Below, one piece after another: positions 14,210 to 59,890 of a stretch of 64,000 bases of DNA. The DNA lies in the NCBI GenBank assembly GCA_934149515.1, contig CAKPFD010000006.1, positions 3,760-67,759 of the forward strand, in the 5' to 3' direction. The translations under genes and the position numbers were made by a program. The DNA is from an uncultured Bacilli bacterium. Lineage in GTDB: Bacteria > Bacillota_I > Bacilli_A > RF39 > UBA660. Numbering within the stretch: position 1 is the stretch's first letter; each line of letters opens with the position of its first letter. The notes below the pieces were generated by a model. It was not told where the DNA came from and did not search any database. It was given only the letters and a program-made list of their open reading frames with translations.

Positions 14210-14246
14210 AGGAATCAAACCATTTTAGGTCGATTCCTTTTTATTT
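14209..14246. terminator. hairpin between convergent genes
   Basis: aaggaatc/gattcctt stem followed by a T-rich tract. The loop is rather long. Confidence 0.4.
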
Positions 14247-18212: not shown

Positions 18213-18851
18213 TTATGCTTTTTGTTCAAATATATAAATACTTTGATGAGAATCATCATTTCTAGTACAAGTAATTAAGGTTAATGTTTTTTTATGATAA
18301 TCTCGATAAATTGCTACCTTCCCTGTTTTTTCAACAGTATAGGTTTTTACTAATTGATAATGATATGTATTCGCTTGATAACTAACGATCGCTTCATCTC
18401 CTAGTTTTAATTGGTATAAAGAATCAAAAAAGGAAATTGCCGCATCACCAGAGTGTGCCATTAAAATAAAGTTACCATCTATAACATCAGGATAATCTGC
18501 TTCTTTAGCAATTTGAATATTATAATTAATATTATTATATATAGAATCTTTTTCGACAAAACCTCGTTTTAAGGAGATTGCTGGAATTTCTAACTGTCCA
18601 ATATATAAAAACGTTGTATCTTCTTTCATAGATGAATCTGTTGAAGAATCGGAAGGAAGTGTTGTAACATCTTGATTCATATAAATATTATCTTGGTTAA
18701 TTTGATAACGATAAATTGCTAAACGCATATCATTAAAAACTTGTTTTTTTACTTTTTCTAGCGGTGGAAAAAGCAAAATAGCAAAACCAATAACGAAAAC
18801 GCAAATACCAGTGACTAGAAGTTTTTTCTTTGTATTATTTCTTTTTTTCAT
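18213..18851 (-). CDS. sortase (cysteine transpeptidase)
   Basis: N-terminal TM, catalytic His context LMAHSG and TLTLITC active-site motif. Confidence 0.85.
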   Translation of the reverse strand: MKKRNNTKKKLLVTGICVFVIGFAILLFPPLEKVKKQVFNDMRLAIYRYQINQDNIYMNQDVTTLPSDSSTDSSMKEDTTFLYIGQLEIPAISLKRGFVEKDSIYNNINYNIQIAKEADYPDVIDGNFILMAHSGDAAISFFDSLYQLKLGDEAIVSYQANTYHYQLVKTYTVEKTGKVAIYRDYHKKTLTLITCTRNDDSHQSIYIFEQKA

Positions 18852-20280
18852 GATGAGGTTTTACCGCCAAAAGAATGAAAATAGCACCAAGTACAACACT
18901 TATTCCACCAATACAATAAATAATAACAGCATTCAAAGAAGTATTTGGAACAGCAATTTCTTTAGTATTCGTTACTTTTACTTCTGTTTTCGTATCTTTT
19001 TCTACTGTAAAAGGATAATCTTGATTTTCAACACTATAATTATCTGGTACAATTGTTTCTTTCAAAGTATAATTACCAGTTGGTAAAACAAGTTCATAAG
19101 GTTGATTCGTTGTCGTAAATTTAGCAACTTGATTCCCTTTAGAATTCATCACTACAAAAGTAGCACCGGCTAATGCTTTATCTGTTTGAGCATCAACCTT
19201 GTAGATAGCAACACTACCAGTTTCAAGATTATAATCAACTTGAATTCTTCCTGTTAATGTTTCTTTATCAACACTTCCTAAAACCAATTGTGAATAAGGA
19301 CCTGGTTCAGAGTAACTAGAGCGATACAAATAACCATTCAAATGACGAATATTAGCAACAACGGTAACATCTAAACTAATCTGATTATTTTTAATTTTAT
19401 CCATTGCAACACGTAAACGAAATGGTTCATTCGCCATAAACGTATCTTTTTTTATTTGACCAGTACTATCTACAATTTCTACATCACTAGAATCAACTTT
19501 TACTTGATAAGTAGCAAACTGATTCAAAGAAGAAACTGTAATATCATTTGTTTCTAAATAATTTCCAATAATATGATATGTAATATCTTCTTCTTTTGGA
19601 AGTGTCACAGTAGCAGTCGCTGGTTCTTGATAAGATAGTGCTTTCGTTACAATGTCTGTAATCATACTACCAAAATCTTCATCATTAGCAATGGTTTGTT
19701 TATCTGAAACAGATAAATTGTTAACAAGATAGCGATCATCTTCAGCAACCTCACTACAAGAAACAATATCACCATCTATTGTATCGCAATAATCTATATC
19801 ATTGCTATAACCATTTTTTAAATCTAAATACCACCATACCGCAAGTTGTGTTAAATAATAATTCAAATTAGCATTATTCGTTTTAAAATCATTATTTTCT
19901 AAAATATATAAAAGTCCAGAATAATTTTCTAAAACAGAATTTTGCTTAGAATAGATATCACTTGAATCAGCCATTAATCGTCTTCTTGAAACACGATAAG
20001 CCTGATCTAAATCACCAGAATCACTAGTTCCTGCATAAATATTGACATCGATATCACCTATTTGTTTCAATGTAGTTCCTGTGTTTTTTAAAGAAAAGGT
20101 CTCTGGTAACGTTTCATTTTGTATTAAAGCATAAGAAGTATTCGTAGAAAAACTAGATTCAAAAGCAACGACAAACAAAATAACAAAACTAGAAATAACA
20201 GCTATTCTTTTCACCATATGAAATGCTTTATCAAATTGTTGAATCATTTCTTGTTGTTCTTTTGATAATTTCTTTTTCAT
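18835..20280 (-). CDS. sortase-anchored surface adhesin (TQxA thioester-like domain + SpaA/CnaB-type domain)
   Basis: Likely start MKKKLSKEQQ at 20280. Contains YYLTQLAVWWY, GSVAIYKVDAQTDKALAGATFVV...GNYTLKETIVPDNY, and a C-terminal VPNTS + hydrophobic + HHEKKK sorting signal. Confidence 0.8.
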   Translation of the reverse strand: MKKKLSKEQQEMIQQFDKAFHMVKRIAVISSFVILFVVAFESSFSTNTSYALIQNETLPETFSLKNTGTTLKQIGDIDVNIYAGTSDSGDLDQAYRVSRRRLMADSSDIYSKQNSVLENYSGLLYILENNDFKTNNANLNYYLTQLAVWWYLDLKNGYSNDIDYCDTIDGDIVSCSEVAEDDRYLVNNLSVSDKQTIANDEDFGSMITDIVTKALSYQEPATATVTLPKEEDITYHIIGNYLETNDITVSSLNQFATYQVKVDSSDVEIVDSTGQIKKDTFMANEPFRLRVAMDKIKNNQISLDVTVVANIRHLNGYLYRSSYSEPGPYSQLVLGSVDKETLTGRIQVDYNLETGSVAIYKVDAQTDKALAGATFVVMNSKGNQVAKFTTTNQPYELVLPTGNYTLKETIVPDNYSVENQDYPFTVEKDTKTEVKVTNTKEIAVPNTSLNAVIIYCIGGISVVLGAIFILLAVKPHHEKKK

Positions 20281-20353
20281 GATTTTCACCCTACTTTCTA
20301 ATACCAAGTATAACAAAAGCAACTTATTTTTTCAATTATTTTGTCAAAAGAAA

Positions 20354-20381
20354 AGGTGCTATTTCCAATGAATAGACACCT
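20354..20381 (-). terminator. intrinsic terminator between the two adhesin paralogs
   Basis: aggtgctatt / aatag(a)cacct stem, followed by a T-run on the minus strand (plus aaagaaaa 20347-20354). Confidence 0.5.
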
Positions 20382-20386
20382 ATTGA

Positions 20387-21862
20387 TTATTTCTTTTTAG
20401 ACTGTGGTTTCAAAGCAACAACAATCAATAAAACTCCAACAGCAATAATGATACCACCAATAGTATAAATCATTGGCATATTAAGAGAAGTATTTGGAAC
20501 AGCTATTTCTTTGGTATTTGTTACTTTTACTTCTGTTTTTGTATCTTTCTCAACGCTGAATTCATAATTAGCTTGTTCGATATTGTAATTATCTGGAACG
20601 ATTGTTTCTGTTAAAGTGTAATTACCCGTTGGTAATGTTATATCATAAGGTTGATTTGTTGTTGTAAACTTAGCAACTTGACTTCCTTTAGAATCAGTAA
20701 TCACAAAAGTAGCTCCTGCTAATGCTTTATCGGTTTGTGCATCTACTTTATGAATGGTAACAGATCCAGTTTCTAACTGATAATCTAGATGTACTGTATC
20801 TGTTATTGTTTGTTTTGTAGCAGAACCCAAAATAAAGTTATTAAATCTTACTGCTGGTTCTGGTGACGTTGGATAATAAAATGCACCATTTAAATGACGA
20901 AATATACCAGTCACCGTAGCAGACAAATTTATTTGTTGATTTTCTAATTTACTCAATAAAATACGTAAACGAAATGGTTCATTCGCTGCAAAAGATTCTT
21001 TTTTGACCTGACCAGTACTATCTACAACTTCAAGATCACTAGAATCAAGCTTTACTTGATAAGAAACTAAACCACTATCATCAGAAGAAACCTTGATATC
21101 ATTCGTTTCTAAATAATCACCAGTAATATGGTAAGTGATATCTTGTGCACTCGGAATATTTAATAGTGTTGCTGATGGCAACTGATACGCTACTGCTTTA
21201 GTAACTAAATCAACAATATCACTACCAAAGGATGTATTCTCTGTAATCATTTTCTTTTCAAGTGCAGATAAACGATTATCAAAACGATATTTACCAGAAT
21301 CATCATATCTTTCATCTACCGTTGCTTCTTGATCAATAACATCTGTTCTTGCACCAGCACCATCATCAGAAACTACTGTTACATAATTTTTATCATTTGC
21401 ATAACCATCAATGATATCTTCATACCACCAAATAGCAAGTTGCGTTAAATAATAATTTACTTTAGCATTATTTGTTTTAAAATCATTCTGATCTAAAATA
21501 TAAAGAATACCAGGATAGCGATTAAAATCAGTGGAAGTTTGTTGATATTTGCTATTATTTATCGCAACAGCTTCTCTATCCATTGCATAAGTGCTATCCA
21601 TATCTCCATTGTCACTAACCGCTTGATATTGTTTGACGAAAATGGTTTCAATTTCTTCTAAATAAGCATCTGACTCCTCCAAAGAAAATGTTTCCGGTAA
21701 TGTTTTTTCCTCTAATAATGCATAAGATGGATTTGGTATCAAAGTACTAATACTAATCACAAGAACAATAATAAAACTACAAATCACACTCATCTTTTTA
21801 ATTTGTTTCATCGCTTCTTCATATTGTACCATCATCTGTTGATCTTTACTTTTCTTCTTCAT
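20387..21862 (-). CDS. sortase-anchored surface adhesin, tandem paralog of 18835..20280
   Basis: Same architecture: YYLTQLAIWWY, GSVTIHKVDAQTDKALAGATFVI..., and VPNTS + TM + KPQSKKK. The C-terminal ~100 aa are nearly identical to the neighbour. Confidence 0.8.
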   Translation of the reverse strand: MKKKSKDQQMMVQYEEAMKQIKKMSVICSFIIVLVISISTLIPNPSYALLEEKTLPETFSLEESDAYLEEIETIFVKQYQAVSDNGDMDSTYAMDREAVAINNSKYQQTSTDFNRYPGILYILDQNDFKTNNAKVNYYLTQLAIWWYEDIIDGYANDKNYVTVVSDDGAGARTDVIDQEATVDERYDDSGKYRFDNRLSALEKKMITENTSFGSDIVDLVTKAVAYQLPSATLLNIPSAQDITYHITGDYLETNDIKVSSDDSGLVSYQVKLDSSDLEVVDSTGQVKKESFAANEPFRLRILLSKLENQQINLSATVTGIFRHLNGAFYYPTSPEPAVRFNNFILGSATKQTITDTVHLDYQLETGSVTIHKVDAQTDKALAGATFVITDSKGSQVAKFTTTNQPYDITLPTGNYTLTETIVPDNYNIEQANYEFSVEKDTKTEVKVTNTKEIAVPNTSLNMPMIYTIGGIIIAVGVLLIVVALKPQSKKK

Positions 21863-30847: not shown

Positions 30848-30976
30848 TTACCAAGTAAGTGCTGATCCTAAAATAATAGCTAATAATATATATAATACAA
30901 TAATGATGATATAGCTATTTCTAGGACGACATGAGCAACTAGAAGTCGTCACTGTTGAATTATTAGAACAAGACAT
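30848..30976 (-). CDS. tiny YjcZ-like (tiny_TM_bacill) sporulation-type peptide, 42 aa
   Basis: Not in the track (below the size cutoff). AAGGAGGTG RBS 7 nt before ATG. MSCSNNSTVTTSSCSCRPRNSYIIIIVLYILLAIILGSALTW has a Cys/Ser-rich head and a hydrophobic tail. Confidence 0.55.
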   Translation of the reverse strand: MSCSNNSTVTTSSCSCRPRNSYIIIIVLYILLAIILGSALTW

Positions 30977-30998
30977 AAAAACACCTCCTTTTATTTTT

Positions 30999-31079
30999 TT
31001 AGATATAGGCACCTATAATAATGACTAATAGAATAAATAATACTAATACAATAGCACTTGATGAATTACAATTACCCAT
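30999..31079 (-). CDS. tiny YjcZ-like peptide, 26 aa
   Basis: Not in the track. AAAGGAGG RBS. MGNCNSSSAIVLVLFILLVIIIGAYI closely matches the YjcZ pattern (small polar/Cys head, then ..LIVVLFILLIIVGA.). Confidence 0.55.
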   Translation of the reverse strand: MGNCNSSSAIVLVLFILLVIIIGAYI

Positions 31080-31245
31080 AACTTAAATCCTCCTTTTTTC
31101 TAGTGTTCATCATATTTTATGGCAAAAGTAGAAATTGTGTGCCTGTTCTATGACAAAGTTCATAAATTTTAAAGCAATCAATTGCTTATTTTTTTAGATA
31201 ATGGTATGATAAATATGCATTTCATAATAGGAGGAGGTAAAAAAA

Positions 31246-33414: not shown

Positions 33415-33549
33415 TTATGAACGAAATTGACAGCAAGAACCTTGATCAACATTACTAACAACATTTTCTTCACAGCAAGAATACTCTGGACGATAGCAAT
33501 GTTTATAAATATGATGATTAATAACTCTAGTACGAATTGGACAAACATG
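33415..33549 (-). CDS. 3' segment of split CotD-like spore coat gene
   Basis: Not in the track. The frame reads (H)VCPIRTRVINHHIYKHCYRPEYSCCEENVVSNVDQGSCCQFRS-stop (TAA 33415-33417). No convincing own RBS or start. It continues the motif that is cut at 38161. Confidence 0.6.
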   Translation of the reverse strand, partial: HVCPIRTRVINHHIYKHCYRPEYSCCEENVVSNVDQGSCCQFRS

Positions 33550-33565
33550 TCCTTGCACTTTTTTG

Positions 33566-34099
33566 TTATACCTTTTTATCAACAACTGTTTCTTGTATCA
33601 TTTGCACTAATTTATAAATATAATCTGCTTTATTTTTTTTCTTATAAATATAAATATAGGATGGATGTTCTACTTTTTTAAATACAACAGGATAATTAAC
33701 TGGATATTTCTTATAATATTTTTCTACAAAAGTAGCTACTTTTTCTCCCAATAGAAAAACAATTTTAGGGTGAAGATATTCAACTTCTTTTACCAAATTA
33801 GAAATACAAGCATTCATCTCTTCTGTTGTTGGATATCGTAATTTCTGCTTGTCATCTAATGGTAAGCATTTTACTAAATTTGTTTTATAATAAGAAACAT
33901 TTGGTAACATTTGTTCTACTTCTTTAATGATTTTTCCACTATTTGTATTTTCTTCAAGTGGATAATTTTTATCTAGGTTTTCTACTTTTTTAGAAGACAA
34001 ACCAACCCACATAACATCACATTTTTCTTTTTTATCTAATAATGGTAATTGATTGAGACATAATGGACATTTCCTACAACTTGCTATTTCCTTTAACAT
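33566..34099 (-). CDS. uracil-DNA glycosylase superfamily protein (family 4/5-like, divergent motif A)
   Basis: N-terminal CRKCPLC, TNLVKCLP motif and C-terminal HPSY motif. GLSSKK replaces the GE(A/G)PG motif. 26-nt overlap with the radical SAM ORF. Confidence 0.65.
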   Translation of the reverse strand: MLKEIASCRKCPLCLNQLPLLDKKEKCDVMWVGLSSKKVENLDKNYPLEENTNSGKIIKEVEQMLPNVSYYKTNLVKCLPLDDKQKLRYPTTEEMNACISNLVKEVEYLHPKIVFLLGEKVATFVEKYYKKYPVNYPVVFKKVEHPSYIYIYKKKNKADYIYKLVQMIQETVVDKKV

Positions 34100-35414
34100 C
34101 TTCCTTCTCCCAACTTAATTGATTCGTTTTTATAACAAACATATTAATCACATCATCTAAACATTGACTAAAATTACCAGCCATAAAATTAAATTGTTTT
34201 CTTCCTTTAAGATTATCTAATTTATCATTATGAACATAAGAAATTTTTTGATGTAGCGACTGATAAAGTTCTGTCCCATGATATGGTCTAAATTGAAAAG
34301 CACTAGCTCTAAAATTACCAGTAGATGACAAAGAATAAGTATACAACTTTGAAGCTAAGGAATATGTATCTTGACACTGTTCAAAAGACTCTTCTGGAAA
34401 TCCATACATGAAATATCCCTTAACATCAATACCACTATCTAAAAGTTTTGTTACAACCTGATATACTTCTTCTATCGTTCCCATTTTATGTATCCGATCT
34501 CTCATCTGTTCATTACCAGATTCTATTCCTATTTCTAATTCTTTACAGCCAGATGTTTTTAACACTTCAAATAAATCTTCAGCACCTTGCAATGATTTTA
34601 CATGAGCCATCGCTCTCCATTCAAAAGGAAAAGAAGAAAAGATAGATACAGCTTTCAAAATACTATTTCTATTTTTTAAAAATAAATCATCTAAAATCCT
34701 TATGCTTTCTGTTGCAGGAAACATTTGTTAGATTTGTAATAATTCTTTTCTAATCGATGCTTCATCTCTTTCTCTTACCGGAACATCTTTATTTAAAGAA
34801 CGAGCACCTCCGCAAAAAGCACAATTATACAAACACTCCCTAGAAGTCACAATTGCTTGTTCATTTTTTTGATATTTATTGATAATAAATCTGTCTTTAA
34901 AAAAGTTCCTATCTAATTCTAAAATAGAAATATCACGTGGTAGATAAACAGATTGAGAAGATACATCATACACTTTTTTATTAGCAATAGATAACACTGG
35001 TTGTTCTTTCATTTGATGATGAACAATATCACTTGTAATATATTCACCTTCTCCAATAACAATAGATAAATTATTAGTGGTTTGAAAATCAAGAATATCT
35101 TCTTTTAAAAATTTGGTACTTTTCCCTCCAATAATAAAATCTGTTTTTGTAGAGCAATTCTCAACAATTTTCTTTACCAATTCAAAATTGACAAAAAAAA
35201 TATTAATTCCAACCGCATCAGGTTTTTCTTTTTGAATAATCTGTAATACTTCTTCAACCGTCAAATTATGATAAACACAATCGATCAATTGGACATCAAT
35301 AGAATCTTTTTCTAACTGTGTAGCAATATATCCAAGACCCAAAGGAGGTAAAAAGTCTTCTTTATCTGCCACTTTTTTATTATAAATTGGAGAATTAAAT
35401 AAGATTACTTTCAT
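34074..35414 (-). pseudogene. B12-binding (class B) radical SAM enzyme interrupted by one in-frame TAA
   Basis: Track ORFs 34728..35441 and 34074..34724 are in the same frame, separated by TAA (34728-34730), CAA, then ATG. The N-part has a B12-binding-like domain (KVILFNSP...PPLGLGYIA) and CLYNCAFC (CxxxCxxC). The C-part has ELEIGIESGN and the rest of the TIM barrel. Confidence 0.75.
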
Positions 35415-35507
35415 AAAAGTAAGCCTCCTTTTGATGAGCAAAATTATAACATATATATCTTATATTGTAAATCAACATGGAAAACGCGAAAAAATCATAA
35501 GTTTTTA

Positions 35508-37037
35508 TTAAAAATGAAGTTTTAACAAAATTTTTTTATCCATAGTAATTTCAAGCCTTTCTATTAATATAACAAGTAATTTTCGAGAAAAAGAAGAAAA
35601 TAACAGCATAGCATCTAATCTTTTTTTGATTTGCTCTTTCTTTTGTTGTATAGATAATTCTAAAGAAGTATTCATTTGATCATATTGTATTTTTTTCTCT
35701 TCTAATTCACTTAAAAGGTTAGTACGGAACTTCAAAAATTGTTCTAAAGACAAAAGACCATCTAATTTATCCATATAAATCATATCTAACTTTTCTTGTA
35801 AACGCTTTATTTTTTCTTGTAATAATAACAACTTATCCTGTTGATCATCTAATTTATCCAAAACCTCATCCATCACACGTTGAACTACCATTTCACTATT
35901 AAAAGAAGAAAAAAACACTTGTCGCAAACAAGAAAGAACATTCTTTTCTAACACATCATAATTATTAGAATGCATCTTACAACTTTTATCTTTTCTATAC
36001 TGACTACAGATTGTATAACAACGTCCATCTTTTTTTCTTCTTGGTAAAACCATAATTCGTCCTTTACAATCACCACAATACAAAAGTCCATCGAGTAAAT
36101 GATTCTCTTTCTTTTCCCATCTACCTTTATTTTTAGGAATTCTATCTTGTACTTTTTGATAAATATCTTTACGAATGATTGCTTCATGAGTATTTTCTAC
36201 AATGATATAATCACAAGGGTTGGTAGCAACCACTTTTTTTATCTTGTAATTAATTTTTTTTCTTTTACTTTGTACCATATTTCCAATATATACTTGATTC
36301 GTTAAAATATCTTTAATCGTTTTTGGATACCATTGATGATAGCAAATAGTATAATGCTGTTTCCATTCAAAAGGATAATAACTAGCAGGTGTTTTCATAT
36401 TTTTTTCGGTTAAATAAGAAGCAATTTGGTAAAAGGTAAAGCCTTGTAAACACAATTGATAAATTTTTTTTACCACAAGCGCTTGATCTTGCTGAATAAT
36501 TAAATGGTTTTTATCCTTTGGATCTTTTTGATAACCAAACGGTGCCCTACTACCAACAAATTTTCCTTCCTTCATTTTTGCTTGTAAACTAGAACGTATC
36601 TTTTTAGAAATATCTTTAGCATACATATCATTCATAATCGCCTTAAAAGGTGCAATATCATTATTTGTTGAATCTAAATAAGTATCAACATTATCCGTAA
36701 TAGCAATATAGCGAATTTGATGTTCTGGAAAATATTTTTCAAGTAAATGACCAATTCCAATATAATCTCTACCAAGTCTTGACATATCTTTAGTAAGAAC
36801 TAAATTAATTTTTTTACTTTCTATATCAGCAAGTAATCGTTGAAAAGCCGGTCGATTAAAATTTGTTCCAGAATACCCATCATCAATATAAAAATCATAA
36901 AGTAATAATTGATTTTCTTTAATATATTGTAACAATAAACTCTTCTGATTGATAATACTTTCACTTTCATAGTTCTTATCGTCATCTTCTCTTGATAAAC
37001 GAATATAAGCACCAACCAAATAAGAGGTATTAAGCAT
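35508..37037 (-). CDS. large serine recombinase
   Basis: Resolvase catalytic domain (AYIRLSREDDD, ...SRLGRD), recombinase domain, Cys zinc ribbon (CGDCKGRI...C...C), and C-terminal coiled coil. 509 aa. Confidence 0.9.
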   Translation of the reverse strand: MLNTSYLVGAYIRLSREDDDKNYESESIINQKSLLLQYIKENQLLLYDFYIDDGYSGTNFNRPAFQRLLADIESKKINLVLTKDMSRLGRDYIGIGHLLEKYFPEHQIRYIAITDNVDTYLDSTNNDIAPFKAIMNDMYAKDISKKIRSSLQAKMKEGKFVGSRAPFGYQKDPKDKNHLIIQQDQALVVKKIYQLCLQGFTFYQIASYLTEKNMKTPASYYPFEWKQHYTICYHQWYPKTIKDILTNQVYIGNMVQSKRKKINYKIKKVVATNPCDYIIVENTHEAIIRKDIYQKVQDRIPKNKGRWEKKENHLLDGLLYCGDCKGRIMVLPRRKKDGRCYTICSQYRKDKSCKMHSNNYDVLEKNVLSCLRQVFFSSFNSEMVVQRVMDEVLDKLDDQQDKLLLLQEKIKRLQEKLDMIYMDKLDGLLSLEQFLKFRTNLLSELEEKKIQYDQMNTSLELSIQQKKEQIKKRLDAMLLFSSFSRKLLVILIERLEITMDKKILLKLHF

Positions 37038-37140
37038 TCAAATACCCCAATTCATCTAACAATTGTTGAACTAAAAAATCTACAAGTAATGCTTCTAATG
37101 ATTGTTTTCCTCTTTCAATTGTAATTTGATATTCTTGCAT
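37030..37140 (-). CDS. 36-aa ORF overlapping the recombinase start
   Basis: Not in the track. MQEYQITIERGKQSLEALLVDFLVQQLLDELGYLNA. Its stop overlaps the recombinase ATG by 8 nt. No clear RBS. Confidence 0.3.
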   Translation of the reverse strand: MQEYQITIERGKQSLEALLVDFLVQQLLDELGYLNA

Positions 37141-37188
37141 AAAAAAACACATCCCATTACAAATTATGCAATGAAAATGGTTTTTTTC

Positions 37189-38046
37189 TTAGTTTTCCTC
37201 AAAAGTTTTACTATTTTCAAAATTAGTAATAATAACTTCTTCTACTTTACCACGCTTCGAACCATTAGAATTAATATTTCTTTTAGCATGAATAACATGA
37301 ATAAAATAATCTTGATAAAGTTCTTTTACTAAATTAGTATGATGATTGGAAAGCATAACATAACAACCTCTTTTATCTAGTTCTTTAAAAACTTTTGCTA
37401 AACGTTTTTGCTCATCTTTTGAAAAACCTTCCTCGGTATAACTATTAAATGTTGCTGTATCAGAATCATAAGGTGGATCAAAGTAAATGAAATCACCCTT
37501 CTTAGCAGTTGATACAGCTTGTTCAAAATCAGTATTTAAAATTTTAATATCATTCATCGTCAAATAATTACTAACGGTAATTAAGTTATTACCATCATAT
37601 GTATTTACTTTTGTTTTCTTTCCAAAAGGAACATTAAATTCATTTTTTCGATTAACACGATACAATCCATTAAAACAAGCTTTATTTAAATAAATTGTTC
37701 TAGCAGCTTTGGTATAATCAGATAAGCGTTGATAAGCTGCTTTATTTTTATCTTTTGCTCGTATTTCATAAAAGAAAGTCTCCGAATGTTTCATTTCATA
37801 TTGATTTAATACATGACACATTTTCTTAAATTTATCTTCATCACATAAACAACGATAAACATTCATAAGTTCCCAATTAGAATCATTAATAACAGCTTTT
37901 TTAGGAGAAAGTTCAAATAATAATGCTCCACCACCTACAAATGGTTCATAATAAGTATCAAATGTATCAGGAACATATTTCTTTAATTGATCAAGAATCT
38001 GTCTTTTTCCCCCTGCCCACTTTACAAACGGTTTACCTTTAAACAT
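37189..38046 (-). CDS. dam: Dam-family N6-adenine DNA methyltransferase (orphan, no adjacent endonuclease)
   Basis: Likely start MFKGKPFVKWAGGKRQIL after GGGGGA. YYEPFVGGGA (SAM motif I) and FIYFDPPY (motif IV). Confidence 0.88.
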   Translation of the reverse strand: MFKGKPFVKWAGGKRQILDQLKKYVPDTFDTYYEPFVGGGALLFELSPKKAVINDSNWELMNVYRCLCDEDKFKKMCHVLNQYEMKHSETFFYEIRAKDKNKAAYQRLSDYTKAARTIYLNKACFNGLYRVNRKNEFNVPFGKKTKVNTYDGNNLITVSNYLTMNDIKILNTDFEQAVSTAKKGDFIYFDPPYDSDTATFNSYTEEGFSKDEQKRLAKVFKELDKRGCYVMLSNHHTNLVKELYQDYFIHVIHAKRNINSNGSKRGKVEEVIITNFENSKTFEEN

Positions 38047-38154
38047 AGTTTCCCCCACACTTTCTATACAATATATAAATTTTATCATAAAATGCGAAAG
38101 AATTGTTGTAATTATTTAAAAAACTTTTAAGTATAAATAGTATCACATAAATAC

Positions 38155-38370
38155 TCAAGCATGTGGTACTTGATGTATGATCGTTTTATGAATACATCTT
38201 TCTTGTACTGGTTCCATAATAGGTGCTGTCATTTCTTGTGCTTCCATCATCGTTGGTCCTTGATTCATACCAACATTAATATCAACATTCATATCTTGAT
38301 CAATAAAATTACCATCACCCATGATAGTAGCATTTTGATCCATTGTAAAATCTTGATTATTATAAAACAT
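38155..38370 (-). CDS. 5' segment of split CotD-like spore coat gene
   Basis: Likely start ATG 38370 after GAGGAGG. ...APIMEPVQERCIHKTIIHQVPH, then Ala-stop read from element DNA. The His/Pro/Cys pattern is like CotD-family coat proteins. Confidence 0.6.
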   Translation of the reverse strand: MFYNNQDFTMDQNATIMGDGNFIDQDMNVDINVGMNQGPTMMEAQEMTAPIMEPVQERCIHKTIIHQVPHA

Positions 38371-38390
38371 ACTTATTTCCTCCTCTACCA

Positions 38391-38418
38391 TAAAATATGT
38401 ACCAATGATAAAAGTTGT
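38391..38418 (-). promoter_or_regulatory. candidate sigma-K-type promoter of the cotD-like gene
   Basis: Minus strand: AC (38418-38417), 17 nt, then CATATTTTA (38399-38391) fits AC-N16/17-CATAnnnTA. It lies only about 20 nt before the ATG, so it is marginal. Confidence 0.3.
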
Positions 38419-38474
38419 ATCTATTATTAGCCTAAAACTTGTGCTATACTAACCAACAAAAAGGAAATAAGAAA

Positions 38475-39233
38475 ATGAATTATAAAGAAATTATAACTAA
38501 AATTGAAAACGAAAAGGTAGAAAATATTCTTCTTCTGTTAGATGAATTAAAATTATCCGATAAGCAAGTAGCAAGAATTTTTCATTATTTAGAAATGCAA
38601 CAAATTGATATCACGAAAGCTTACAGGAAAGACTATTCACTTCTTTACGAATTTTTATATCATACATCCAAAAAAGATAAAGCATACTTTCACCAACACT
38701 TAATTTATCCATTAGCTAAATTAAATATTGATAAAAACCTGCAAGAAATAATCAAGCACTTACAAATAAATACCAAGCACTTATCTTATCTTGAATCTGG
38801 TTCTTCTAATTTTGCTTTTGCTACAGAAAAATATGTTATAAAATTAGGAAATCGTCGTAAAACATTTGATTTTCCTACATTTTATCGTCTAAATCCTCTT
38901 ATTGTTCAAAAACGATTTTTCTACCATGAACAACCACTATATTTTGAAATTAGTCCAAAGTGTCAAAAAATAACATTAACAGAGGAAGATATACACGCTA
39001 TTAATGAAGATTTTCAACAAGCAAAGCTTATCTTAGGAGATCCAAATTATCAGCATAACTTCATGCTAGCTACCACAGATACATTACCTGATTTTCAAGA
39101 AATTGATGGAATCCATGAACCACTTTATCAAGAAGAAAGCAAAGCATACCAAAAAAAGAAGATCAAACTAGTTGATCTTGATTACATTTATCACCAAAAT
39201 GATAAAGAAATTACCTATGCTCCAAGAATCTAA
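38475..39233 (+). CDS. hypothetical protein (faint protein-kinase/APH-like motifs)
   Basis: Likely start MNYKEIITK after AAAGGAAA. GSSNFAFATEKYVIKLG, LGDPNYQHN and VDLDY vaguely resemble the Gly-loop, Lys, catalytic loop and DxD of CotS/APH-like kinases. Very tentative. Confidence 0.4.
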   Translation: MNYKEIITKIENEKVENILLLLDELKLSDKQVARIFHYLEMQQIDITKAYRKDYSLLYEFLYHTSKKDKAYFHQHLIYPLAKLNIDKNLQEIIKHLQINTKHLSYLESGSSNFAFATEKYVIKLGNRRKTFDFPTFYRLNPLIVQKRFFYHEQPLYFEISPKCQKITLTEEDIHAINEDFQQAKLILGDPNYQHNFMLATTDTLPDFQEIDGIHEPLYQEESKAYQKKKIKLVDLDYIYHQNDKEITYAPRI

Positions 39234-42313: not shown

Positions 42314-43519
42314 TTACCTCCCAAAATATTGTAACAAAATAAGTAATGTCATTCCAAGACTAATATTCAACAATCCAAACAAAGCAACAATAGAAGCATA
42401 ACCATAACTAAAAGAAAAACGATATGGTAATATTTCTTCTTGCTCTTCTTCTACAATTTTTATTGATTGCTTTGGTACAATAAGTTTTACTTTCTTTTCC
42501 TTTTTCTTAATAAAAACATAATCAGGTAAGGCTGCAATTGTAAAGTCTTGGTTTGAAATCAATTGATAACAACGAATAACAGAATAACGACTATCAATAA
42601 TTCTAGCAATAGAAATAGATAAAGCTTCTTTTTCTGATAAAGTATAAATTTCATCGATTTCTTTTAAATGATTCTTTTTTAATGAACTTCTTTTAATCAT
42701 AGCAATACAAGGTGTTAAATTAGAAGCATCTGCCATATCCCATTGGCGTTGAAAAGCAGCTAAAACTTGTTGTTTTTCTCTAGGACTACAATGAATATGA
42801 TCACAAATCTTCTCTAAGTTTTCAAAACACAACTCTTTATCCTTCAAATAATAAGCATCTTGGTAATATCCTTTTTTTTGATAGTATTTACTACTAGAAC
42901 TAAGCATTGCTAAATAAGAAGGACAAGAAATAGCTGCATAATAACTAAGTGCCGGAGAATCTGTTAATGGAATATAAGATTTATTTTCTAAAGATTCATC
43001 TGGTATAAAATCTTGATATTGATGGTTTGAAAAAATATAATCTATCTTTTTCATATCCATAATAGGTGGTTGTAAGTAAGAAGGATGAATTCCTTTTTCT
43101 TGCAATTGTTCTTTTATTGAAGAAGGAAAGCTATAAAAGAAATAACCATTAACAATATAATTCTCATAAATATAGTGTAATATTTGTTTTTTATTTTCAG
43201 TACTTGTATCATTTTCTAAACCTAGTTGATAACAAACATGTTTTCCTAATAATTCATGCAAATAAATGACAAATTCCTGTAAAGAAGTTGTAGAAAATAC
43301 TTTTCTTTTAATATCAGAAACTGCCTCTAGTAAAAAATCATCACTAGGAATAATCAGATCATATTTGATAAAAAAGTCAATCAAAGTAACCATTACGTAT
43401 TGATTATACGCATATTTTTGTTCTTTTGTAGAAATATTTGAGACTTGATAGAATGTATGTTTATTTTCTAGTACTTGATGTAAAAGTTGTTTTAATTCTG
43501 GTAGTTGAAAAATATCCAC
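42314..43519 (-). CDS. hypothetical protein with C-terminal TM anchor
   Basis: 401 aa, Tyr-rich, no recognised motif. C-terminal hydrophobic helix. Confidence 0.55.
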   Translation of the reverse strand: MDIFQLPELKQLLHQVLENKHTFYQVSNISTKEQKYAYNQYVMVTLIDFFIKYDLIIPSDDFLLEAVSDIKRKVFSTTSLQEFVIYLHELLGKHVCYQLGLENDTSTENKKQILHYIYENYIVNGYFFYSFPSSIKEQLQEKGIHPSYLQPPIMDMKKIDYIFSNHQYQDFIPDESLENKSYIPLTDSPALSYYAAISCPSYLAMLSSSSKYYQKKGYYQDAYYLKDKELCFENLEKICDHIHCSPREKQQVLAAFQRQWDMADASNLTPCIAMIKRSSLKKNHLKEIDEIYTLSEKEALSISIARIIDSRYSVIRCYQLISNQDFTIAALPDYVFIKKKEKKVKLIVPKQSIKIVEEEQEEILPYRFSFSYGYASIVALFGLLNISLGMTLLILLQYFGR

Positions 43520-43552
43520 TCCATCTCACCACCTTACTTTTCTTCATTATAG

Positions 43553-43582
43553 CAAAAAAAAAGAGCAATGACAAACTCTTTT
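43553..43582 (-). terminator. intrinsic terminator after the HerA-like ATPase
   Basis: aaagag/ctcttt stem, then a 9-nt T-run on the minus strand. Confidence 0.5.
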
Positions 43583-43667
43583 CTTCTAGCAACAATAAAC
43601 TTTTAAACAAACCCAATCTTCATACATTATCTCTATTAAAGAACAGTCTTCATTTTCTTAGATAAGA

Positions 43668-45530
43668 TTATAATAATGTTGGCGTTTGCTCCTGATTAAA
43701 ACTGAAATTTGGCATTGTTGCTGGTGCTGGTGGTGTTGTTTGTGTATTTGGCATAACAGTTGGTTGTTCGGTGGTATTTCCATTCCATTTTGTAACCACA
43801 TCACAGTTACCACTACTAGGTTCTGGTGATGGCATTTCTAATCGTATAATCAATGGGATTTTAAATGCTCTACCAAACGCAAGACAAGTACCAGATTGTA
43901 AGCTTTTTTGTTTTTCCACAATTTCTACAGAAATATTTGGTACCATCTTTTTAATATAATCAACATCTGTTGGATGGTTAATTTTAAAGATTAAAAAGTT
44001 TGAACATTGAGAAATAACAGTATCAGATAATTCCACAGGTCGTTGAGAAATAAGTCCTAATAACAATCCATATTTTCTACCCTCTTTGGCAATTCTTTCA
44101 AAAATATTATAACCAAATAAGAATCTATCTGTATCATTTTGAATATAACGATGTGCTTCTTCTACAAAAATATGGAAAGGAATACTTGCCTTTTGTTTTA
44201 AACTTTTTGTAAATTCAAATAATAAACGTGAATAAATTTTTGTAATAGATTTAGCAAGTTCATCATCAATATCATCTAAGTTGATATTAACAATCTGATA
44301 CTTAATTCCCCTTTGAACAAATAAAGATGACAAATAATTATCTAAAGAAATATATTGCCCAGTTGGAGATTGAAAATATTTTGCATTATCAGAAGTAATT
44401 AAAGAATGTAAACGCACTTTTAAAGTAATGGCATCGCCGTAAGTATTTTCATTTCGCAACCAACCTTCACTAATCAAAGTAAAATTCAACGCTTTTTCCA
44501 AGTCTTCTAACGTATAAAAACAATCTTTTTTAGGTTCATATCGATCATATTCTTCATGAATAAAACTAGATACATATTCTGTCAATAAAACACTTTCTGA
44601 AAATTGACCATGGGAATCAATCAAAAAACATTCTCTAAATTTGCGTGTATATCCAATTCCTTGTACTGGTGATTCTAATTGAAATTCATCTGTAGAACAA
44701 CTAGCTAAAATAGAAAATATTTCATCTCGTTTATTAGGTGCTGTTTGATTGGTATAAAGAATCGTCATAATCGCTTTAGCAATCAAATGATTTTTATACT
44801 TTTTAACAGCATCTCCTGTTTCTGAAAACATTCTAGCTAATTTAATCATTCTCTCAATAATTGGTAATTGAGAATGTGTATTAACTTGCAATAATAATGC
44901 TAAATCAACTTCATTTAATAGATGAATTGGCAATTTTAACAACTCATTTCCATCCATTTCATTTGTTGTAATAAAACGATAATGATAATTCGGATCGATT
45001 TGATTTAAATCTTTAAAAGCATGATAATATTCTCCAGAAGAATCAAATAACAAAAAATTAGCTCGATAAGGAAATAACTGTTTATCCAAAAACATATTTT
45101 GAATAATTCTAGAAACTCCACAAGATTTACCACTGCCACTATTACCAAAAATAGCAAAATGATTACTAAAAAATGAACCAACATCAAAATAAACCTTTGT
45201 ATCATTATAAAATGGACTCATTCCCATTAAGACGTAACCCGGTTGATGTTGTCCAACAATCATTGGAATTTCATTTTGTTCAATCACACGAATACTAGCA
45301 CTCATCATTGGTTTTCTAAGAACACCACCAACTAATCTTCCATTGACAATCTCTCCTAAAAAACGAACCTTCAAAACACCATCTTTTATATCATCTACTT
45401 CTGCCAACACTTTTTTATCAGGATCTTCAAAAACAAGATGTAAATTCATAAAGTTATAACTTTCTAAGGCAGTAGTTGCTAATTTTACCTCTGCGCTTTG
45501 ATCACTCATACAAATAATTTTTTCAAACAT
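43668..45530 (-). CDS. HerA/FtsK-superfamily (DUF87-like) P-loop ATPase
   Basis: N-terminal beta-barrel-like region, Walker A FGNSGSGKS, Walker B IFVEEAHRY, and a Pro/Thr-rich C-terminal tail. The ATG overlaps the ylxM stop (TAATG). Confidence 0.7.
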   Translation of the reverse strand: MFEKIICMSDQSAEVKLATTALESYNFMNLHLVFEDPDKKVLAEVDDIKDGVLKVRFLGEIVNGRLVGGVLRKPMMSASIRVIEQNEIPMIVGQHQPGYVLMGMSPFYNDTKVYFDVGSFFSNHFAIFGNSGSGKSCGVSRIIQNMFLDKQLFPYRANFLLFDSSGEYYHAFKDLNQIDPNYHYRFITTNEMDGNELLKLPIHLLNEVDLALLLQVNTHSQLPIIERMIKLARMFSETGDAVKKYKNHLIAKAIMTILYTNQTAPNKRDEIFSILASCSTDEFQLESPVQGIGYTRKFRECFLIDSHGQFSESVLLTEYVSSFIHEEYDRYEPKKDCFYTLEDLEKALNFTLISEGWLRNENTYGDAITLKVRLHSLITSDNAKYFQSPTGQYISLDNYLSSLFVQRGIKYQIVNINLDDIDDELAKSITKIYSRLLFEFTKSLKQKASIPFHIFVEEAHRYIQNDTDRFLFGYNIFERIAKEGRKYGLLLGLISQRPVELSDTVISQCSNFLIFKINHPTDVDYIKKMVPNISVEIVEKQKSLQSGTCLAFGRAFKIPLIIRLEMPSPEPSSGNCDVVTKWNGNTTEQPTVMPNTQTTPPAPATMPNFSFNQEQTPTLL

Positions 45531-57609: not shown

Positions 57610-58275
57610 TTATGATACGTGAACCAAATTTGCTATATAAACGGTCTGTGTTGTATTATCATAGTTTGTACAAGTTACCAAAGTAAGAGACGTCTTGCTA
57701 TAATCTCTTTTAATAGCAATAGTACCAGTCTTTGATTCCTTATAAATACTTGTTATTTGATATGTATACCGTTTACTTTGATAAGTAACAATTGCCTGAT
57801 CACCAACAGATAATTGATATAAATCATTAAAGAATGCTTTCCATCCAGTACCTGAATGTCCTGCAATAATCAGATTACCTTTAGAGACATTAGGCATCGT
57901 ACTACCAGAAATAACTTGAATATTTTTTTCCACTGTATTTTCAGGACTTTCTATAGAATAAAATCCCCTATTAAAATTAATCTTAGGAATCTCCAAATAA
58001 CCTATATAGCCACTTGTTACTTCCTGTGTTACCTGTTCTTGTTGTTCTTGTGTTTGCTGACTTTCAGTTTCTTCCTGTTCATCAGTTTGAACAACAACTT
58101 CATTTTGAAATAGCTTTGTATTCATATAATTAAAAGCCATGGAACGTTTCTGTTCAATAAGATGATAAAAAGATAAGAATCCCCCTAGGACAATCATAAT
58201 TGCTCCTAAAAGAGCGGTTGTACTAGATGGGACTCTTCTTTTTTTATTGTTCTTTTTTGCCATTGTAGTAAACAA
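57610..58275 (-). CDS. sortase
   Basis: IAGHSG and SLTLVTC motifs, N-terminal TM. Paralog of 18213..18851. Confidence 0.85.
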   Translation of the reverse strand: MFTTMAKKNNKKRRVPSSTTALLGAIMIVLGGFLSFYHLIEQKRSMAFNYMNTKLFQNEVVVQTDEQEETESQQTQEQQEQVTQEVTSGYIGYLEIPKINFNRGFYSIESPENTVEKNIQVISGSTMPNVSKGNLIIAGHSGTGWKAFFNDLYQLSVGDQAIVTYQSKRYTYQITSIYKESKTGTIAIKRDYSKTSLTLVTCTNYDNTTQTVYIANLVHVS

Positions 58276-59791
58276 ATCCTACACTAGAAATCAATATGAT
58301 CGTTCCAAATAAAGTCGGTAACATAGAACTATAACTATTAGTTGAAGGTACAGCAACTTCAGGATAATTTTCTACAATCACTTCAGCAGTTGGTGATTCA
58401 TCACTAATTGTAAATTTATAAACTTCATCCGTTTTCTTATAACCATTTGGCGCACTAACTTCTTCGACAGTATAAGTACCATCTTCAAGTTGTGTCAACG
58501 TATATTGTTCTTCTGTAGTTGTAAACTCAGCTACTGTTTCCCCTTTTTCATTCTTCACTACTAATTTAGCACCAGCCAATGCATGTCCAGTTGACTTGTC
58601 TATTTTAATAATATTAACTAATTTATCAATCGCTTCATTTTCTACTTTAACAGTAACATCACGATTTTTATCATTGATAGTAATTTTTGTACTTTCAGTT
58701 TTAATCTTATAACCATTTGGAGCTTTTGTTTCTTTTAATGTATATGTTCCATTTGGTAAGTTTTTAATAACATGAGCATTTGTAGTAGATACCCAATTCG
58801 TAATTTCTTTTCCTTCACTATCTAATAATACAAAGTTAGCTCCAGCAAGTGTTGTTCCAGTTTTAGAATCAACTTTTGCTATTGTTACTTTACTAGTAGA
58901 TATTGAAACTTCTGTTGTAGCAGTTAATGATGTTGTCGTTGGATATAAAAGACCTTGATATACATTTTGATATTCACTACTAGCAGCTTTATACTCATAA
59001 GCCTTTTCTACTACACCGTTTGCTGTAACTGTAATTTTAATTGTTGTCTTCATTTGATCTACATTAGAAGCTGGAACACGTAATTTAAAAGATTCATTTG
59101 TAGCAAATGATGTTTTTACAGCACCACTTGAAGCATCTGTTACAATAGTTCCTTCTGGTGCTCCGCTAATGCTAACAGTATAATTACCACTAACATTAGT
59201 ACCATTTACACTAATTGTTTTAGATTCATAATATTTTTTATCAGATGTTAATTGCATAGTACTATCTGAATTATTAATTGATAATGTTGGTGTTGCATAA
59301 GAAGTTACTTTCTTTGCATTTGTTACTAAATTAATAATATGCGGACGTAATCCATAAGGATCAGCACCAGTTTGCTTAAAAGCAGCATTTAAGTTTTTAG
59401 ATCCTGTTGTTTCATCCAAATACCACCAAATAGCAGCACGTGTAATATAAGAATCATAATCATCATTACCAGTAATTTTCTTATTAGGAAAACCATTAGC
59501 AAAGATATAAGTAATTCCTGGAGATGCTTCTCCAACTAATGTCATTGTTTGACCAACTGGATCTTTTTTAAAGATATCATTACAGAACGCATATCCACCG
59601 TTACTTGTCGTAAATTGTGATGGTGCAATATCTGTAATATAGTTTGGTAATTTTGTCATTTTAGAAATAACAAAAGAACTAGGAGCTGATCCTTGTGCCT
59701 GTGTTGATGGCATAAAGACAGCTGAACAAATGATAGTAAGGATAATAGCTAAAGCTATCATACCATTTTTTTTCTTTGTGAATCTCTTCAT
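58244..59791 (-). CDS. sortase-anchored surface adhesin (thioester-like domain + two SpaA/CnaB-type domains)
   Basis: Likely start MKRFTKKK at 59791. Signal peptide; GGYAFCND ... ITRAAIWWY; two repeats of (V/I).K.D..TG..LAGA.F.L/V...G...; C-terminal VPSTN + TM + NGKKEQ. Confidence 0.8.
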   Translation of the reverse strand: MKRFTKKKNGMIALAIILTIICSAVFMPSTQAQGSAPSSFVISKMTKLPNYITDIAPSQFTTSNGGYAFCNDIFKKDPVGQTMTLVGEASPGITYIFANGFPNKKITGNDDYDSYITRAAIWWYLDETTGSKNLNAAFKQTGADPYGLRPHIINLVTNAKKVTSYATPTLSINNSDSTMQLTSDKKYYESKTISVNGTNVSGNYTVSISGAPEGTIVTDASSGAVKTSFATNESFKLRVPASNVDQMKTTIKITVTANGVVEKAYEYKAASSEYQNVYQGLLYPTTTSLTATTEVSISTSKVTIAKVDSKTGTTLAGANFVLLDSEGKEITNWVSTTNAHVIKNLPNGTYTLKETKAPNGYKIKTESTKITINDKNRDVTVKVENEAIDKLVNIIKIDKSTGHALAGAKLVVKNEKGETVAEFTTTEEQYTLTQLEDGTYTVEEVSAPNGYKKTDEVYKFTISDESPTAEVIVENYPEVAVPSTNSYSSMLPTLFGTIILISSVGFVYYNGKKEQ

Positions 59792-59890
59792 TTTTTTATT
59801 CCCCCCAAATCTCAATTTGTGTCCATATTATACCACATTAATTTCTATTTGGCAAGGACTTTCACAAAAAATCATCAAATAAGAGCCCAC

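Follow-up and report, generated by a model that had tools for sequence, protein, structure and literature searches.

What does it mean that a gene resembling the spore-coat gene cotD lies in two pieces on one strand, with a serine recombinase between them, and could the two pieces ever be rejoined? The locus is found in a stretch of 64,000 nucleotides (hereafter the window, meaning this whole length) on contig CAKPFD010000006.1 of an uncultured Bacilli bacterium, assembly GCA_934149515.1, where a 4,614-bp element at 33550..38163 of the minus strand separates the two pieces. Intervening elements that split sporulation genes are known from sigK (skin), spsM (SPbeta), spoVFB (vfbin), spoVR (vrin), gerE (gin) and yabG (yin). 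It is practically certain that the window holds a site-specific serine-recombinase element which splits the CotD-like gene at a CA core, and we moderately favor the further reading that this element is also excised in the mother cell, rebuilding the gene. We infer both the excision in the window species and its specificity for sporulation. The element belongs to a large and apparently undescribed family, site-specific for one codon of this cotD-like gene.

Two halves of one cotD-like gene

The upstream piece is carried by a minus-strand open reading frame (ORF) at 38370..38155, which reads …APIMEPVQERCIHKTIIHQVPH and then runs into an alanine codon and a stop inside the element (…IIHQVPHA-stop). 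Its ATG at 38370 is preceded by GGAGG, a strong ribosome-binding site (RBS), and the part belonging to the coat gene (38162..38370, minus strand), comprising codons 1-69 and the first two bases (CA) of His70, aligns with residues 1-70 of intact homologues. The downstream piece (33415..33549, minus strand) runs from His70 to Ser113 and the stop codon, reading HVCPIRTRVINHHIYKHCYRPEYSCCEENVVSNVDQGSCCQFRS-stop, and shares 65-93% identity with the last 43 residues of intact homologues. It has neither a start nor an RBS of its own, the sole in-frame start being a TTG within the upstream uracil-DNA glycosylase (UDG) gene. The pentamer ACATG occurs on the minus strand at 38164..38160 and again at 33550..33546, the plus strand of the two sites agreeing at 8/9 positions over CAANCATGT, and the two CAT (His) codons, both in frame, are spaced 4,614 bp apart. 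Joining 38370..38162 to 33549..33415 on the minus strand deletes these 4,614 bp and gives an uninterrupted ORF of 113 residues, a gene of 342 bp. The original prediction had proposed just these points, namely the ATG start of the first ORF, the startless second frame, and a crossover within the shared repeat that keeps His in frame, and each of them is borne out on the sequence.

Since the DNA is only 28% GC, the shared pentamer alone is uninformative, and what carries the split beyond chance are the intact homologues, the conservation of VPH/VCP over the junction and the CotD match of the joined product. A protein search with the joined protein recovered 209 homologues, nearly all of 105-117 residues and uninterrupted, the best being 79% identical over 99% of the query (E = 1e-57). 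The intact homologues run …HQVPHVCPIRTR… without a break over the junction, and the window's own 71-residue N-half was the sole truncated sequence near the top of the homologue list. Seventeen sequences were aligned, among them the window's joined protein and its truncated N-half; the intact proteins read …H-x-VPH-[VI]-CPIRT[RK]… over the junction, with P69 and H70 invariant and C72, P73 and I74 nearly so. The Pfam family CotD (PF11122) matched residues 50-98 of the joined protein, spanning the junction (E = 9e-4), while neither half alone had any Pfam match. Of the 17 aligned sequences, 10 matched the same family at E < 0.01, the best of them at 2e-5, and the family was also present as a precomputed match on two homologues of the joined protein. 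A comparison by hhalign with B. subtilis CotD, of value as a lead only, gave E = 7e-4 and a probability of 27%, with 42% identity over 43 columns.

From these comparisons it can be concluded that the two pieces form one gene. The intact orthologues that should read across the junction do exist, and the halves do not behave as independent complete proteins, only the joined product matching CotD. The predicted resemblance to the CotD family holds as far as the junction-spanning match is concerned and falls short in score, which reaches 20.1 bits against a gathering threshold of 22; the gene is CotD-like, the window protein being a borderline case for strict membership of the Pfam family. The joined protein and the inner spore coat protein CotD of B. 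subtilis are both small and rich in His, Cys and Pro, and share a core …T-I-x-x-VPH-x-x-P-x-x-T-x-x-x-N-H-x-H…. The window protein differs in its Asn/Asp/Met-rich N-terminal extension and its C-terminal CC…CC motif.

Attachment sites and the crossover point

The attL and attR sites of seven elements, the one in the window and sister elements at the same site in related genomes, were aligned in register. Within the junction core, only the CA that forms the first two bases of His70 and a TG seven bases downstream match between attL and attR in all seven. Exchange at CA alone restores the invariant H-V-C, crossover at TG yielding HAC, HDC, QVC or QEC. Moreover, the attL His codon in four sister loci (L070, L072, L091 and L097) is CAA (Gln), and becomes CAC or CAT only by exchange at CA. 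The comparison therefore narrows the probable crossover to this dinucleotide, placed on the minus strand at 38162..38163 in attL and at 33548..33549 in attR. The attL junction (38163/38162 region, minus strand) reads …CATCAAGTACCA/CATGCTTGAGTATTT… and the attR junction (33549/33548 region, minus strand) …AGTGCAAGGA/CATGTTTGTCCAATT…, with the slash at the crossover; the predicted attB of the joined gene would be …CATCAAGTACCA/CATGTTTGTCCAATT… and the predicted attP of the circle …AGTGCAAGGA/CATGCTTGAGTATTT…, both given on the same strand.

When attP was reconstructed from the right end, CA and the left end, 6/7 elements had their best center of dyad symmetry on CA; it scored 14-16 of 24 positions, and the next best center 10-12. 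The imperfect inverted arms at the ends of the window element are symmetric at 15/24 positions around CA, and attB has little dyad symmetry. The window arms, …GGTATAACAAAAAAGTGCAAGGA-CA-TGCTTGAGTATTTATGTGATACT…, show a recognizable relationship to the arms found in the sister elements, …GTCTATCAAAAAAGGGCAAGGA-CA-TGTGTGATAATTTATGATAGAC…. Such CA-centered arms, as read from the alignment, are the expected anatomy of a large-serine-recombinase site.

Anatomy and cargo of the element

All genes of the element are co-oriented with the split gene, and this is true for every gene in every element examined. The recombinase (35508..37037, minus strand) has 509 residues and the domains Resolvase (PF00239, E = 7e-22), Recombinase (PF07508, E = 1e-21) and Zn_ribbon_recom (PF13408, E = 5e-8), and so agrees in both architecture and size with the large serine recombinases, defined here by these three domains and about 450-700 residues; its prediction as such is confirmed. 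Its best matches in the PDB are the catalytic domain of TnpX (E = 3e-26) and, over the full length, SprA/YokA of SPbeta (E = 5e-18). The best NCBIfam families are CcrB, CcrC and XisF, all far below cut-off. Directly before the recombinase lies a small ORF of 36 residues (MQEYQITIERGK…; 37030..37140, minus strand) that overlaps the recombinase start by 8 nucleotides; an alternative ATG at 37152 would extend it to 40 residues.

The cargo next to attL is a Dam-family N6-adenine DNA methyltransferase (37189..38088, minus strand; PF02086, E = 1e-60; TIGR00571, 282 bits), labeled by PADLOC as a type II or orphan methyltransferase; its translation probably begins at the ATG at 38046, for a protein of 285 residues. 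Dam methyltransferases 74-81% identical to it adjoin the cotD-like gene outside any element in L052, L072, L044, L047 and L049; that of L072 (2161..3042) lies between ffh and the cotD-like gene, and that of L052 (8055..8897) downstream of an intact gene. Either the Dam gene is mobile on its own, or the window element captured a neighboring host gene. Beyond the recombinase, a sigma-70-like promoter (TTTACA-17-TATAAT with TG, 35443..35471, minus strand), known from an 11/12 consensus match only, precedes two further cargo genes. A B12-binding radical SAM gene (34074..35414, minus strand; PF02310 and PF04055), with only weak, below-cut-off matches to named families, is inactivated by an in-frame TAA at 34730..34728. 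Its end is overlapped by 26 nucleotides by a family-4-like gene of the UDG superfamily (33566..34099, minus strand; PF03167, E = 7e-13), which matches TIGR00758 and NF040953, both below cut-off.

The non-phage appearance of this cargo, as foreseen, was substantiated: beside the Dam, B12-radical SAM and UDG-like genes there are no phage structural, lysis or replication genes. A phage origin was rejected, the recombinases in the phage database being at most about 40% identical. A defence-system identity was also rejected, since the scan of the cargo gave just generic methyltransferase matches and one weak candidate-family match, PDC-M51A. There is no jump in GC content at the element, an Rfam scan found no family in 30.5-39.5 kb, and a generic repeat finder returned only chance AT-rich repeats, the att core being too short for detection by it.

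Sister elements, empty sites and horizontal movement

Relatives of the locus were sought in one genome per species (GTDB), which gave 80 loci, all from metagenome-assembled genomes (MAGs) of uncultured gut Bacilli, including Clostridium sp. CAG:451, Candidatus Onthousia and Candidatus Faecenecus. The gene is intact in about 70 of them, in most cases with ffh before it and rpoZ and recX after it, and with extra genes between it and these neighbors in several loci. In six species loci (L069, L070, L071, L072, L074 and L075) the gene is likewise split at His70, both halves being present together with a homologous recombinase 55-57% identical to that of the window, and the inserts measure 3.4-6.1 kb. 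Two more, L079 and L080, have a match to the N-half only and no recombinase match. For L079 the junction and cargo could be read directly, the contig stopping within the element, and L080 is presumably split too, judging from its N-half match, which ends at residue 69. Element carriers thus amount to 8 of the 80 species representatives, all at the same His codon, and counting L091 and L097 there are no fewer than 10 loci besides the window in which the site is occupied. Searching proteins with the recombinase as query gave, apart from its own cluster (100%), hundreds of clusters with 56-59% identity and nothing in the range from there up to 100%. All three clusters sampled from these (P0137, P0191 and P0124) adjoin a cotD-like 3′ half, the 5′ half being visible in two.

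Only the recombinase and the small ORF just before it are common to all elements. The remaining cargo of the sister elements is variable, including Fic, MazEF, NERD, an ABC transporter, a rubrerythrin-like gene and others, and phage genes were absent from these elements as well. MazE/MazF occur in L070, L075 and L097/L098, Fic in L070, L071, L074, L075, L079 and L091, and NERD in L072, L074 and L091. Where toxin-antitoxin, Fic and NERD-nuclease genes are the sole cargo of sister elements, such addiction- or defence-type genes may aid the persistence of tiny elements. A different arrangement was seen in L094-L096, where the recombinase stands directly against the 3′ half and radical SAM/SPASM genes occupy the 6 kb upstream, with no 5′ half there; the element may be much larger in these loci, or the locus rearranged.

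The recombinases of L070, L071, L074 and L075 are 80-86% identical and their host Ffh proteins 79-83%, and for every interrupted host there is a closer relative whose gene is intact. Host and element histories thus disagree, which indicates that the family is horizontally mobile. An empty site came from an exact look-up of nine joined proteins, one of which, that of the L070 species, was present in the collection. The contig concerned (L100, 1,877 bp) agrees with L070 at 100% of positions before the junction and at 99.6% beyond it, with the two matches overlapping by 3 nucleotides, and the integrated form of the same species is found on nine other contigs. An otherwise near-identical strain therefore lacks the 4.4-kb element exactly at the predicted core.

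Promoter, sporulation context and host

Upstream of the coat gene (38391..38435, minus strand), a sigma-K-type -10 box, CATATTTTA, lies at 38399..38391, with AC 17 nucleotides upstream of it at 38418..38417 and TTAGGC at 38435..38430. In the orthologous regions, CATAnnnTA stands 28-33 nucleotides before the ATG in 45 of 76, and in 74 of 76 with at most one mismatch, where shuffled sequences gave 1.9. Across the window the motif is not enriched (59 found vs 69 expected), so that the argument rests on its positional conservation. A TRGGY box, usually TTAGGC, occurs upstream of the coat gene in 73/76 regions; among the 43 that have both motifs, it precedes the CATA box by 33-35 nucleotides in 40. 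In B. subtilis the sigma-K consensus is CATAnnnTA with an AC upstream, and TRGGY forms the core of the GerE binding site; reading the TRGGY box here as a GerE site is speculative. The cotD gene of B. subtilis is sigma-K dependent, and from the type of its promoter the present coat gene would be expressed in the mother cell.

Two tandem YjcZ-like genes, encoding membrane peptides of 26 and 42 residues (30999..31079 and 30848..30976, within 30848..31121, minus strand), had been put forward as a sign of a spore former. They are real and strongly conserved in 20 relatives, scoring 20.2 bits (E = 3.5e-4) and 15.6 bits (E = 0.01) against TIGR01732, both just under the cut-off of 21.35. Eight relatives share the 26-residue peptide without a change, two of them (L001 and L002) having Ffh proteins only 82-87% identical to that of the window, and AC-N17-CATA(A/G/C)AATA precedes the genes in 20/20 loci. 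No core sporulation gene was found in the 64-kb window by Pfam annotation of the flanks and Pfam/NCBIfam scans of unannotated ORFs. The uncultured order RF39 has been predicted from genomes to form spores (PMC10868615), and the same order has been assigned to Candidatus Faecenecus (PMC8035907), which among the present relatives is a distant one. Taken together, the sequence data suggest that the host clade probably sporulates.

Proposed excision and its control

According to the mechanism that we propose, the recombinase would bind the imperfect inverted arms at attL and attR, cut at the central CA (38163-38162 and 33549-33548, minus strand), exchange strands and free the element as a circle, leaving behind an intact 113-codon gene behind its own sigma-K-type promoter. 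This would take place in the terminally differentiating mother cell, while the forespore germ line would keep the element, as for skin/sigK, SPbeta/spsM and gin/gerE. The small ORF could supply the directionality factor for excision, and its timing could be set by read-through from the late mother-cell promoter of the coat gene. Such read-through is possible because there is no intrinsic terminator on the minus strand between the coat-gene promoter and the recombinase, and because the genes are co-oriented.

Directionality factors are known as Skr, CD1234, SprB and GirX. The small ORF encodes 33-62 residues, shows the pattern M-[DNQG]-[KE]-Y-[KNQ]-I… followed by an amphipathic stretch, and immediately precedes the recombinase in 10/10 elements; in all six for which both coordinates are listed, it extends into the recombinase start. 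It has no Pfam or NCBIfam match, and its position and conservation would make it the best candidate recombination directionality factor (RDF). A CATAnnnT[TA] box is found 20-29 nucleotides before the small ORF in 8 of 10 elements, against 0.4 in shuffles. For the window element itself, a sporulation-type promoter before the small ORF and recombinase was rejected, the CATA box being degenerate and the SigE-like matches unconvincing.

Several observations weigh against programmed excision in the mother cell. Neither an attB nor an attP excision product of the window species is on record, and the attP junction of the main family had 0 matches in metagenome contigs, compared with 15 for the attL control. 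The CATA box before the window small ORF reads only CATAATTTG, and no exact CATAnnnTA occurs on the coding strand within the element. Co-orientation may merely reflect the strong strand bias of the genome. The role of the small ORF is uncertain, as the nearest solved and curated relatives of the recombinase include TnpX and Ccr, enzymes that work without a directionality factor. For the uncultured host, sporulation is deduced from two small gene families, promoter footprints and the published prediction for a related order. Purifying selection on the two halves may largely predate the insertion. Finally, the comparisons of hosts and recombinases imply that these elements, being horizontally mobile, act as ordinary integrative elements too.

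The locus might instead represent plain insertional inactivation, in which the VPHVCP-coding stretch serves as attachment site just for its high conservation between species and the knock-out of a coat gene is tolerated with no programmed excision. Horizontal movement, the presence of occupied and empty sites within one species, the missing circle and junction products, and the lack of a clear sporulation promoter before the window recombinase would all fit such an explanation, and many coat proteins of B. subtilis are individually dispensable. We nevertheless consider it unlikely, because the interrupted alleles do not look like dead genes: all nine that were reconstructed (9/9) keep both halves and every conserved residue, as intact ORFs of 98-116 codons with the conserved core kept, and even the promoterless 3′ half shows a ratio of nonsynonymous to synonymous polymorphism (pN/pS) of about 0.27 among interrupted alleles. 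In the window species the element is integrated in 22/22 contigs read for the species' Ffh, and is 100% identical in four other aligned contigs and 99.3% in a fifth; no intact allele of this species was found among about 15 billion proteins. With no recombinase relative above 59% elsewhere, this suggests a long residence, during which the cargo has decayed twice. The radical SAM gene was broken independently by CAA->TAA in the window and the four identical contigs and by a 141-bp in-frame deletion in L089, which keeps CAA at the codon equivalent to 34728..34730 and carries the deletion further on, at about its position 14229. The recombinase, the small ORF and both coat-gene halves have stayed intact in these strains.

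Excision could also occur without being tied to the mother cell, as a stochastic or stress-induced switch resembling active lysogeny that varies coat composition, or only for transfer of the element. The yin element of C. botulinum was found excised at all growth stages, with heterogeneity in the population (PMC10747680), the window recombinase resembles TnpX/Ccr-type enzymes that excise without a developmental signal, and sigma-70-like promoters lie just inside attL. Frequent vegetative loss would, however, be expected for a non-replicating circle of 4.6 kb, yet the element is integrated in every contig of the window species with no empty allele on record, and the ratio of 0 attP to 15 attL junctions in metagenome contigs speaks against it as well, so that we regard this kind of switch as quite improbable. 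That the split is an artefact of chimeric assembly, or a chance neighborhood of two unrelated small complete genes, can be given almost no credence. The metagenome-type origin of the window is the only point for it, and it is countered by the same arrangement in 22 contigs, by five aligned loci of the window species from separate assemblies, by the same split in eight related species representatives, and by the halves themselves, which have no Pfam match alone, the 3′ one without a start codon, while intact homologues span both. Programmed excision in the mother cell, with the reservations given above, is the reading that we retain.

Comparison with known systems

No intervening element in cotD was found in the searchable full-text literature, in keeping with the original prediction, which was aware of none. 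Its structural parallel to skin-type elements also proved sound: one gene is split in its most conserved motif by a recombinase-bearing insert, and a crossover restores the ORF. The window element agrees with the class of intervening elements in the type of target, the recombinase, the restoration of the ORF in silico and the att anatomy, while the sporulation-specific excision that defines the class is predicted for it; as far as these comparisons go it differs from described members in target gene, host lineage and recombinase lineage. The view that it is unusually small was not upheld, as published skin elements span 2.6-48 kb (bioRxiv 10.1101/2022.02.25.481979).

The skin element with SpoIVCA, in sigK of B. 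subtilis, Clostridioides difficile and about 15 other Firmicutes, is likewise a large-serine-recombinase element in a late mother-cell gene, with host-dependent cargo, sizes down to 2.6 kb and only the recombinase shared, much as in the window family. Skin and yin (PMC10747680) also have the recombinase in the orientation of the interrupted gene, with no terminator in the stretch from the promoter to the recombinase, as is the case in the window. However, the target of skin is a sigma factor, whereas here it is a structural coat protein, so that excision would not gate the whole late program, and the host belongs to a lineage of uncultured small-genome gut Bacilli. The gin element in gerE of Bacillus cereus ATCC 10987, with GirC and GirX (PMC5595907), is also a non-phage element in a very small (225-bp) late sporulation gene, combining a serine recombinase with a small accessory factor (a candidate here) and a short core within an imperfect inverted repeat, and horizontal spread between strains has been inferred for it, as for the window family. 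It is 28.6 kb long with three recombinases, compared with 4.6 kb and one; GirX is experimentally proven, while the window small ORF is a conserved candidate; and gin has a core of 9 bp, whereas here the comparisons narrow it to CA, together with a TG at a distance of seven bases, exchange at which would fail to restore the protein.

SPbeta, with SprA and SprB, splits the mother-cell-expressed spore-surface maturation gene spsM of B. subtilis by means of a serine integrase (PMC4191935, PMC5499854). SprA is the closest full-length solved structure to the window recombinase, and the directionality of SPbeta depends on a small RDF under sporulation control. SPbeta, with a size of 134 kb, is an active phage, in contrast to the window element with its lack of phage genes and its distance from phage recombinases. 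Among non-phage elements, TnpX of Tn4451/Tn4453 gives the best PDB match to the catalytic domain, and CcrB/CcrC of SCCmec the best NCBIfam matches. Those elements are similarly small and excise as circles, but their enzymes are bidirectional without an RDF and unlinked to development or to a sporulation gene, and the low score of the window recombinase (124 bits vs a cut-off of 900) places it outside their families.

Implications

Reported targets of intervening elements (sigK, spsM, spoVFB, spoVR, gerE and yabG) are nearly all from cultured Bacillus and Clostridium, and the cotD-like gene would be the seventh, encoding a structural coat protein. To these is added a family of very small non-phage elements in uncultured small-genome gut Bacilli, possibly RF39, with hundreds of recombinase clusters in gut metagenomes. 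If mother-cell-specific excision is true, the junction sequences could serve as a direct in-situ read-out of sporulation for unculturable organisms; the recombinase, small ORF and roughly 50-bp sites could form diverged recombinase/att/putative-RDF units, minable as genome-engineering tools; and the family would illustrate that such elements can survive nearly devoid of cargo, a point relevant to the question of what draws them to sporulation genes. If there is no excision, they would still represent a clean mobile-element family with a single attachment site encoded by a protein motif. A bolder extension, which we put forward as a doubtful idea, is that these are self-timed miniature elements with no developmental promoter of their own, in which read-through from the promoter of the interrupted gene triggers the gene's own repair. 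Circles freed at mother-cell lysis might then offer a route for horizontal spread among uncultured small-genome gut Bacilli, and attB/attP reads a culture-independent marker of sporulation.

Other features of the window

Divergent from the coat gene, a 264-residue ORF (38439..39233, plus strand) overlaps the end of ffh by 4 nucleotides at its own end. It belongs to no Pfam or NCBIfam family and is found only in the closest relatives (40-47% identity), being absent from most other loci. Between ylxM and fmt (42314..45530, minus strand) lie a DUF87/HerA-like ATPase of 620 residues and then a 401-residue protein without a family; the ATPase has a weak, below-cut-off similarity to 'anti-phage-associated HerA', and the pair could be a defence or DNA-translocation module. 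Two separate clusters of sortase and SpaA-type pilin genes are also found in the window, as is a lipoteichoic acid synthase of the LtaS type (18213..21862 and 57610..59815, minus strand); they therefore indicate a Gram-positive wall, although several of the related MAGs are labeled 'Tenericutes'.

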